64,000 nucleotides of DNA, taken from the NCBI RefSeq assembly GCF_050920415.1, contig NZ_CP169309.1; one strand, written 5' to 3'. Below are positions 2,630 to 5,600 of the stretch, in pieces. The position numbers were made by a program. The DNA comes from Escherichia coli (GTDB lineage Bacteria > Pseudomonadota > Gammaproteobacteria > Enterobacterales > Enterobacteriaceae). The first letter of the stretch is position 1. Each line of letters opens with the position of its first letter.

Positions 2630-5600
2630 TAAACCGCGTCAGGGTTGCCGGATGTCTCCATCCGGCAACCTCAAATCACAGCACTTTATGCGGGCCAAAG
2701 CATTCGTAATGAATGTTTTCCTGTTTCACACCCAGGTCCACTAACTGTTTCGCGGCAAACTGCATGAAGCCAACCGGGCCGCAGAGATAGAACTGCATTG
2801 TCGGATCGCTGAACGCACCTTCCAGTTTGCTCAAATCCATCAGACCTTCACTATCAAACTGACCTTTAGCGCGATCGGCTTCGCTCGGCTGACGATACCA
2901 GGTGTGCGCGGTAAAGCGTGGCAGTGCTTGCCCCAGTTCCTTAACTTCATCGGCAAAGGCATGAACATCGCCATTTTCTGCCGCATGGAACCAGTTTACC
3001 TCAGCGCTATGACCTGCTTTTGCCAGCGTGTCGAGCATTGCCAGCATTGGTGTTTGACCGACACCGGCAGAGATTAACGTCACCGGCGTGTCATCTGCGA
3101 TAGCCATAAAGAAATCACCTGCCGGAGCGACCAGTTTCACGACATCGCCAACGTTGGCGTGATTGTGTAACCAGTTTGATACCTGCCCACCCTCTTCGCG
3201 TTTCACTGCAATACGATAGCCTTTGCCATCCGGTTTGCGCGTCAAAGAGTACTGACGAATTTCCTGATGTGGGAAACCTTCCGGCTTCAGCCAGACGCCG
3301 AGATATTGCCCTGGACGGTATTCCGCCACTGCGCCGCCGTCCACCGGCTCAAGTTCGAAACTGGTGATAAGCGTGCTGCGCGGTGTTTTAGCTACAATGC
3401 GGAAATCGCGAGTACCTTCCCAGCCACCGGCTTTGCTGGCGTTTTCGTTATAGATTTCCGCCTCGCGATTAATAAATACATTAGCCAGTACGCCATAGGC
3501 TTTACCCCACGCGTCCAGTACTTCCTGGCCCGGGCTGAACATTTCGTCCAGCGTCGCCAACAGGTGTTCACCGACGATATTGTATTGTTCCGGTTTGATC
3601 TGGAAGCTGGTGTGTTTCTGAGCGATTTTTTCTACCGCTGGTAACAGCGCAGGCAGGTTTTCAATATTGCTGGCGTAGGCGGCAATAGCGTTAAACAGGG
3701 CTTCACGTTGATCGCCATTACGCTGGTTACTCATGTTAAAAATTTCTTTGAGTTCTGGGTTATGAGTAAACATACGGTCGTAGAAATGGGCGGTTAACTT
3801 TGGCCCTGTTTCCACCAGTAAAGGGATGGTGGCTTTTACTGTAGCGATGGTTTGAGCGTCAAGCATATGGTCTTCCTTTTTTTGCATCTTAATTGATGTA
3901 TCTCAAATGCATCTTATAAAAAATAGCCCTGCAATGTAAATGGTTCTTTGGTGTTTTTCATGAAGAATGTGATGAAGTGAAAAATTTGCATCACAAACCT
4001 GAAAAGAAATCCGTTTACGGTTGCAAGCTCTTTATTCTCCAAAGCCTTGCGCAGCCTGAAGGTAATCGTTTGCGTAAATTCCTTTGTCAAGACCTGTTAT
4101 CGCACAATGATTCGGTTATACTGTTCGCCGTTGTCCAACAGGACCGCCTATAAAGGCCGAAAATTTTATTGTTAGCTGAGTCAGGAGATGCGGATGTTAA
4201 AGCGTGAAATGAACATTGCCGATTATGATGCCGAACTGTGGCAGGCTATGGAGCAGGAAAAAGTACGTCAGGAAGAGCACATCGAACTGATCGCCTCCGA
4301 AAACTACACCAGCCCGCGCGTAATGCAGGCGCAGGGTTCTCAGCTGACCAACAAATATGCTGAAGGTTATCCGGGCAAACGCTACTACGGCGGTTGCGAG
4401 TATGTTGATATCGTTGAACAACTGGCGATCGATCGCGCGAAAGAACTGTTCGGCGCTGACTACGCTAACGTCCAGCCGCACTCCGGCTCCCAGGCGAACT
4501 TTGCGGTCTACACCGCGCTGCTGGAACCCGGCGACACCGTTCTGGGTATGAACCTGGCGCATGGCGGTCACCTGACTCACGGTTCTCCGGTTAACTTCTC
4601 CGGTAAACTGTACAACATCGTTCCTTACGGTATCGATGCTACCGGTCATATCGACTACGCCGATCTGGAAAAACAAGCCAAAGAACACAAGCCGAAAATG
4701 ATCATCGGTGGCTTCTCTGCATATTCCGGCGTGGTTGACTGGGCGAAAATGCGTGAAATCGCTGACAGCATCGGTGCTTACCTGTTCGTTGATATGGCGC
4801 ACGTTGCGGGACTGGTCGCTGCTGGCGTCTACCCGAACCCGGTTCCTCATGCTCACGTAGTGACTACCACCACTCACAAAACCCTGGCGGGTCCGCGCGG
4901 CGGCCTGATCCTGGCGAAAGGCGGTAGCGAAGAACTGTACAAAAAACTGAACTCTGCCGTTTTCCCTGGTGGTCAGGGCGGCCCGTTGATGCACGTAATC
5001 GCTGGTAAAGCGGTTGCTCTGAAAGAAGCGATGGAACCTGAGTTCAAAACTTACCAACAGCAGGTCGCGAAAAACGCTAAAGCGATGGTAGAAGTATTCC
5101 TGGAGCGCGGTTACAAAGTGGTTTCCGGCGGTACTGATAACCACCTGTTCCTGGTTGATCTGGTTGATAAAAACCTGACCGGTAAAGAAGCTGACGCCGC
5201 TTTGGGCCGTGCTAACATCACCGTTAACAAAAACAGCGTACCGAACGATCCGAAGAGCCCGTTTGTAACCTCCGGTATTCGCGTGGGTACTCCGGCGATT
5301 ACACGTCGTGGCTTTAAAGAAGCCGAAGCGAAAGAACTGGCTGGCTGGATGTGTGACGTGCTGGACAGCATCAATGATGAAGCCGTTATCGAGAGCATCA
5401 AAGGTAAAGTTCTCGATATCTGCGCACGTTACCCGGTTTACGCATAAGCGAAACGGTGATTTGCTGACAATGTGCTCGTTGTTCATGCCGGATGCGGCGT
5501 GAACGCCTTATCCGGCCTACAAATTATTGCAAATTCAAGATATTGCAATCTCCGTGTAGGCCTGATAAGCGTAGCGCATCAGGCAATTTTTCGTTTGTGA

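Follow-up and report, generated by a model that had tools for sequence, protein, structure and literature searches.

The window, by which we mean the whole 64-kb stretch of DNA analysed, belongs to an E. coli chromosome: when 901 bp surrounding the site described below were used as a query, 5425 of the 5426 complete genomes of the species gave one match each, and the annotations under these matches are hmpA and glyA. The two genes diverge, with the hmp start ATG at 3866-3864 on the minus strand and the glyA start ATG at 4194 on the plus strand, and the 327-bp spacer between them, for which the earlier note had given exactly the right coordinates (3867-4193), has the same length in K-12 MG1655. 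From the hmp ATG as far as 3960, window and K-12 agree in every letter; the spacer differs from that of K-12 at five positions (3961-3962, 4017, 4052 and 4159), all of them beyond the hmp promoter and operator. The regulator gene nsrR lies outside the 64-kb window; of the 5426 complete E. coli genomes, 5425 have it, and the source strain itself presumably carries it too.

For comparison across species, a degenerate-pattern scan of species-representative genomes yielded 120 Enterobacterales hmp loci, 118 of them with enough upstream sequence to be used. The divergent hmp-glyA arrangement is retained in 106 of the 120 loci, the median length of the spacer being 326 bp, and a whole-spacer footprint, taken from a MAFFT alignment of 24 Enterobacteriaceae, has conserved -35/-10 islands at both ends, in agreement with the earlier claim that the spacer serves two divergent promoters.

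On the hmp side, these islands lie at 3934-3949 (the -35) and at 3894-3925 (operator plus -10). The promoter scan returned TTTACA as the -35 element (3940-3935, minus strand), followed after an 18-nt spacer by TAAGAT (3916-3911); the -10 region TATAAGAT (3911-3918, minus strand) can be read either as this hexamer or as TATAAG (3918-3913), and the distance from TTTACA to the -10 is 16-18 nt. The hmp ribosome-binding site, AAGGAAG (3871-3877, minus strand), was assigned from the sequence and from a conserved block at 3872-3879. We take FNR to be centred at +5.5 on this promoter, so that the hmp +1 would fall near 3904, and the 23-bp sequence at 3893-3915 would extend from about -11 to +12.

On the glyA side, a conserved TTGTCA (4084-4089) precedes two candidate -10 elements, AATGAT (4106-4111) and TATACT (4117-4122); the promoter scan returned TTGTCA-16-AATGAT, and the core promoter region (4084-4122, plus strand) is marked by conserved blocks at 4080-4104 and 4110-4137. 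The footprint also has conserved blocks at 4040-4049 and over the glyA leader and ribosome-binding site (4165-4193). A conserved upstream block, GTGAAAAATTTGCATCACAAACCTGAAAAGAAATCCGTT (3977-4015, assigned to neither strand), is likely a MetR region common to glyA and hmp. MetR binding in the hmp-glyA intergenic region has been published (PMC2884951), and the only match in the spacer to the MetR consensus with one mismatch falls at 3978-3990; the consensus scan was itself uninformative, with 26 matches in the 64-kb window against 27 expected and no enrichment. Upstream of the glyA promoter, a PurR-box-like sequence, ACGCAAACGATTACCT (4060-4075, minus strand), agrees by hand count with ACGCAAACGTTTGCGT at 13 of 16 positions and falls in the conserved block 4062-4081. 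It is probably the PurR box reported by Steiert et al. 1990. The glyA-side promoter and the conserved blocks upstream of it are consistent with the known MetR and PurR inputs.

The sequence at 3893-3915 is TTGATGTATCTCAAATGCATCTT on the plus strand and AAGATGCATTTGAGATACATCAA in reverse complement, and reads AAGATGCATTT-G-AGATACATCAA in the direction of hmp. The earlier note had singled it out as an inverted repeat at which an NO-responsive NsrR repressor would cover the hmp promoter, and had proposed a scan with an NsrR weight matrix as a check. Apart from hmp, Table 4 of Mehta et al. 2015 (PMC5320621) contains 25 distinct NsrR sites; we derived a symmetrised matrix from these, so that hmp itself had no share in it. 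When this matrix was run, the flagged 23-mer came out as the best match in the 64 kb (rank 1, 18.0 bits), with P about 5e-7 per position and 0.035 matches of this strength expected per 64-kb window. In this matrix the sequence conforms to the NsrR operator pattern AAGATGCATTT-N-AAATGCATCTT, a site of the 11-1-11 type on the minus strand. Its left half, AAGATGCATTT (3915-3905), scores 15.6 bits and is the top half-site of the entire window, and its right half, AGATACATCAA (3903-3893), is weak at 2.0 bits. The final bases of the -10 are the initial bases of the NsrR site, which overlaps both the -10 hexamer and the place where transcription is expected to start, a position from which a repressor would occlude RNA polymerase.

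The same sequence might instead be an imperfect palindrome that arose by chance in an AT-rich promoter and has no operator function, and its symmetry does fit that account. Only 7 of 11 positions pair between the two arms; the spacer contains five 11-1-11 positions with a score of at least 7/11, where resampled spacers lead one to expect 3.4, and the inverted repeat at 3893-3915 was not returned by a repeat search of the region. Any significance as a bare inverted repeat was accordingly dropped, since pairing of this degree is at chance level. The NsrR signal sits in the motif match and not in the symmetry. Against a chance origin are the 18 bits of the match, with 0.035 expected per 64 kb, the recurrence of the site in all 118 usable species at a fixed register to the promoter, and the published ChIP and gel-shift data (PMC5320621, PMC10783083), and we give this account practically no credence.

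The published record bears directly on the site. Table 4 of PMC5320621 enters it for E. coli CFT073 as ChIP-seq positive, with the same 23 letters as in the window, and the centre of the NsrR ChIP-seq peak is given there as 34 bp upstream of hmp, which corresponds to about position 3900 in the window, within 3893-3915. The proposed assignment as an NsrR site over the hmp promoter is borne out by this identity and by the overlap with the -10. The hmp promoter was also bound in the K-12 ChIP-chip study of Partridge 2009, as cited in PMC5320621. Still earlier, comparative genomics had led Rodionov et al. 2005 (PMC1274295) to predict the hmp NsrR site, whose conservation they also pointed out. NsrR is described as an NO-sensitive Fe-S repressor of hmp (PMC2884951, PMC5320621, PMC6950321), and NsrR-dependent, NO-sensitive repression of hmp is established for E. 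coli as well as for Salmonella (PMC2884951, PMC5320621, PMC6950321, PMC10783083). The NsrR- and NO-dependence of hmp expression goes back to Bodenmiller & Spiro 2006, in the form in which PMC2884951, PMC5320621 and PMC6950321 relate that work, and the experiment proposed in the earlier note, in which fusions are compared in the presence and absence of NO donors in an nsrR mutant, has been published for the exact hmp sequence. Purified Salmonella NsrR shifts the near-identical Salmonella hmp site in gels, and NO weakens this binding (PMC10783083).

The comparison across species extends this picture. By best matrix match, an NsrR-type site stands upstream of hmp in 118 of the 118 usable loci, with scores from 13.7 bits (an Aeromonas outgroup) to 31.4 and a median of 26.6. 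As a control, we scored 400-nt chunks of the same loci, leaving out those that overlapped the hmp upstream region; their median was -0.7 and their 99th percentile 12.4, and 0.1% of them reached at least 17.2 bits. An alignment of one sequence per genus (40 genera) was anchored on the site, and anchoring on the best matrix match inflates conservation within the site columns themselves. The columns of TTTACA were not used in anchoring, and across the 40 genera this element is conserved at a constant distance upstream of the NsrR site, which always begins within the -10, at the TAT/AAGATGC junction. The Escherichia operator, with 17.2 bits, scores below all others of the 118 except the Aeromonas outgroup locus; decay of its right half to 2.0 bits, where the median for right halves among the 118 loci is 11.6, accounts for this.

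The right part of the NsrR site also contains an FNR box, TTGAG-ATAC-ATCAA (3893-3906, minus strand). Read from 3906 to 3893 as TTGAGATACATCAA, it matches 9 of the 10 positions of the FNR consensus TTGAT-N4-ATCAA close to the promoter. The changes in the right half that lower the NsrR score in Escherichia are also those that create the FNR box, and this coupling of right-half decay with an FNR box is a small observation beyond the literature we consulted. FNR is known to repress hmp (PMC2884951, PMC5320621, PMC3212961), and in Salmonella its anaerobic effect on hmp is 216-fold (PMC2884951, PMC3212961). One could hence read 3893-3915 as an operator for FNR only, of the form TTGAG-N4-ATCAA, with the likeness to NsrR sites incidental; the 9/10 match at 3893-3906 and the documented repression both agree with such a reading. 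It does not account, however, for the published NsrR ChIP-seq signal at the identical sequence (PMC5320621), nor for the fact that the FNR box covers only a minor portion of AAGATGCATTT, which with its 15.6 bits is the best-conserved and highest-scoring part of the site. The literature also reports that hmp keeps full NO induction and its dependence on NsrR in an fnr mutant under aerobic conditions. Moreover, FNR-box matches of at least 8/10 come almost entirely from Escherichia, Salmonella and Citrobacter, the exceptions being a single Hafnia and a single Raoultella, in line with the published remark that the hmp FNR box is conserved in close relatives only (PMC1274295), whereas every one of the 118 species has the NsrR-type site. 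Since the latter is universal and the FNR box is found in few genera, we exclude the FNR-only reading, to which we would leave a very slight chance. FNR and NsrR, two Fe-S repressors, share one spot at hmp and are not alternatives.

A different kind of explanation would move the action from DNA to RNA, with a hairpin or an sRNA target in the hmp 5' leader taking the place of a DNA operator. The right half of the site and the second half-site discussed below would be transcribed if +1 lies near 3904, and the sRNA SdsN137 has been reported to repress hmpA. The leader, however, folds at -3.4 kcal/mol with z = +0.41, no better than shuffled sequences, and the spacer has no match to an Rfam family, on which grounds a leader RNA hairpin was rejected; the best-conserved half of the site, moreover, lies upstream of the start site. 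We consider it extremely improbable that an RNA element replaces the operator. An sRNA contact in 3867-3892 is possible alongside the NsrR operator, not in place of it.

The earlier note had also pointed to a second GCATCTT, at 3884-3890, as a further half-site. The heptamer is indeed present there as well as at 3909-3915, and both copies lie within an exact 9-nt direct repeat, TGCATCTTA (3883-3891 and 3908-3916, 25-nt spacing); a 9-nt direct repeat within 40 nt arises in 8% of resampled spacers. The corresponding 11-mer, AAGATGCAAAA (3880-3890, minus strand), is a putative NsrR-like half-site that is oriented like the left half of the operator, starts 25 nt downstream of it and, within the hmp 5' leader, directly precedes the Shine-Dalgarno sequence. 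This 11-mer has also been catalogued, since PMC5320621 lists 'hmp (19) AAGATGCAAAA', with a low score of 5.00, under the hmp ChIP peak. Being weak and limited to one lineage, it should carry no weight as evidence. It scores 7.4 bits (P about 6e-4 per position), 0.41 equally good matches are expected per spacer, and two half-site look-alikes of equal strength are present in this one, at 3938-3948 (minus strand) and 4161-4171 (plus strand). Among the 118 loci, the exact AAGATGCAAAA is limited to three species (E. coli, E. albertii and E. whittamii), a near copy being present in one further Escherichia, and the columns of 3880-3890 are poorly conserved in the 24 Enterobacteriaceae. A conserved third half-site at offset +25 had seemed promising when species were ranked and was gone once one representative per genus was scanned at every offset; that scan found no enrichment at +25 (mean -6.4 bits, 8% of sequences at 6 bits or more).

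In all likelihood the half-site at 3880-3890 is incidental, or else no more than a weak auxiliary contact. A more committed version would have it as a functional auxiliary contact for a further NsrR subunit or dimer, which reinforces repression and so compensates for the degraded right half in Escherichia. For this speak the exact 9-nt repetition of the strongest part of the operator, the entry of 3880-3890 as an 11-bp motif beneath the hmp ChIP peak (PMC5320621), the joint presence, in E. coli, E. albertii and E. whittamii, of the half-site and the weakest right half, and the report that single 11-bp motifs suffice for NsrR binding (Partridge 2009, as conveyed by PMC5320621). Set against these are the low score of 7.4 bits, with 0.41 such matches expected per spacer and two others present, the poor conservation of the columns among Enterobacteriaceae, the lack of genus-level enrichment at offset 25, the 25-nt spacing, which would put the half-site on a different helical face, and an adjoining A-run whose length varies within E. 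coli. We hold such a functional contact to be unlikely, at perhaps one chance in a handful. Less probable again, and distinctly doubtful in our view, is that the Escherichia hmp operator has been rewired as a whole, with the right NsrR half decayed, an FNR box formed and the AAGATGCAAAA copy partly restoring NsrR occupancy; if this were true, the operator of Escherichia would consist of three half-sites and would have gained dual control by NsrR and FNR at the price of NsrR affinity.

We are highly confident that the region is the E. coli hmp-glyA divergent control region, that 3893-3915 is the NsrR operator within it, and that NO releases the repression; none of the observations contradicts this. 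The regulator is NsrR, an Rrf2-family repressor carrying an Fe-S cluster, and its operator at 3893-3915 takes in the last bases of the -10 and, with a +1 near 3904, the start of transcription and about 12 bases of the transcript. Conservation and the published ChIP data show that holo-NsrR binds here; from the position of the site, the bound protein would be expected to block RNA polymerase at the hmp core promoter. According to the literature, NO reacts with the NsrR cluster, binding is lost, and hmp, which encodes an NO dioxygenase, is induced. Under anaerobiosis, FNR, a second Fe-S regulator that is likewise inactivated by NO, represses from the same spot. The Escherichia operator is asymmetric, with a left half that matches the consensus and a right half that is degraded for NsrR and good for FNR.

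The operator, its regulator, the NO response and the weak second motif are all already known, the site having been predicted in 2005 and its function demonstrated from 2006. Hmp is the main aerobic NO-detoxifying enzyme of enterobacteria, and its tight repression by NsrR matters both for survival in macrophages and for avoiding the superoxide that Hmp generates (PMC2884951). The value of the present case is that of a positive control, in which a real operator was located to the base from sequence alone and textbook regulation was re-identified.

Set beside known systems, the site in the window is the same object as the hmp NsrR site of K-12 and CFT073, sharing both its 23-bp sequence and its gene context; K-12 has the same promoter and leader from the hmp ATG to 3960, and the operator is without any difference. 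The near-perfect reference is the ytfE operator, AAGATGCATTTAAAATGCATCTT, which has the left half AAGATGCATTT and the 11-1-11 geometry in common with hmp. The ytfE site is a perfect palindrome, whereas the hmp right half, AGATACATCAA, has by hand count four mismatches to AAATGCATCTT and scores 2.0 bits, and the published PatSer ln(P) values are -25.1 for ytfE and -18.2 for hmp (PMC5320621). In Salmonella Typhimurium, the hmp site AAGATGCATTTGATATACATCAT is found at the orthologous position and is two bases apart from that of E. coli; its right half is better for NsrR, the whole sites scoring 25.2-25.4 bits against 17.2 in E. coli, and Salmonella is without the second half-site AAGATGCAAAA of E. 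coli. The FNR operator at hmp (Poole 1996; Cruz-Ramos 2002) has its box, TTGAG-N4-ATCAA, within the same 23 bp as the NsrR site. FNR differs from NsrR in belonging to the CRP/FNR family, in having O2 as its primary signal and in that its box at hmp is limited to a few genera.

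Over the 901-bp stretch 3600-4500, which spans the hmp-glyA spacer, identity to the window is at least 99% in just 17 of the 5425 E. coli genomes and 95-99% in the others; the stretch is 100% identical in three strains, 2013C-4282, WL297 and MFDS1022581. These identity counts suggest that the lineage of the window, or its allele of hmp and glyA, is one of the less common ones. Of 5418 E. coli genomes, 3645 match the 79-bp hmp promoter and leader at 100% identity and the remaining 1773 at 95-99%. CU39ES-1, the sole strain inspected from this 95-99% band, differs by one additional A in the A-run (3873-3883, hmp strand) that lies between the second NsrR-like half-site and the Shine-Dalgarno sequence.

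Both divergent genes have an in-frame ATG slightly 5' of the accepted start, at 3885-3887 for hmp and at 4188-4190 for glyA, and it is because of these upstream codons that the mechanical ORF list begins at 3887 and 4188, respectively. In glyA the arrangement is ATGCGG-ATG; in hmp it is ATGCAAAAAAAGGAAGACCAT-ATG, with the upstream ATG placed seven codons before the accepted start and within the second half-site (3880-3890, minus strand). Since the length variant of the A-run would shift the upstream hmp ATG out of frame, use of this codon as a start is unlikely. A separate leader variant was seen in E. coli MS14384, a blood isolate (NZ_LR130562.1, 1301560-1301830), where an apparent tandem duplication of about 28-29 bp, TTTGAGATACATCAATTAAGATGCAAAA(A) present twice, takes in the FNR box, the right half of the operator and the second half-site.

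Farther into the spacer, the longest conserved mid-spacer stretch among 24 Enterobacteriaceae is a 39-bp block at 3977-4015, which contains two TGAA-N5 motifs together with TTTGCATC, a sequence of which a second copy (repeat family D2) is found at 3881-3888. This block is probably a MetR region shared by the two genes. When Rfam matches above the gathering score were counted across the window, none fell in the hmp-glyA spacer; those found elsewhere were the sRNAs ryfA (35492-35796, minus strand) and sroE (48645-48736, plus strand) and the iscRS stability element (28007-28116, plus strand).

A scan of the 64-kb window with the NsrR weight matrix, from which hmp had been left out, placed second a match of 16.35 bits at 44348-44370 (TCGTTTTATTTTAAAAAAATGTT). 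It falls in the gap that separates a 770-aa ORF (42006-44318), which is probably pbpC, from an ndk-like ORF starting at 44467. The matched sequence is AT-rich and of low complexity, and ndk is absent from the downstream genes of Table 4 in PMC5320621; the match is probably a false positive.

Across the 118 species compared, the weakest hmp NsrR sites after that of the Aeromonas outgroup locus are those of E. coli, E. albertii and E. whittamii, which score 17.2 bits where the median is 26.6, with the right half (3903-3893 in the window) down to 2.0 bits. The same bases that weaken this half of the NsrR site give the operator its FNR box (3893-3906), which matches at nine of ten positions.
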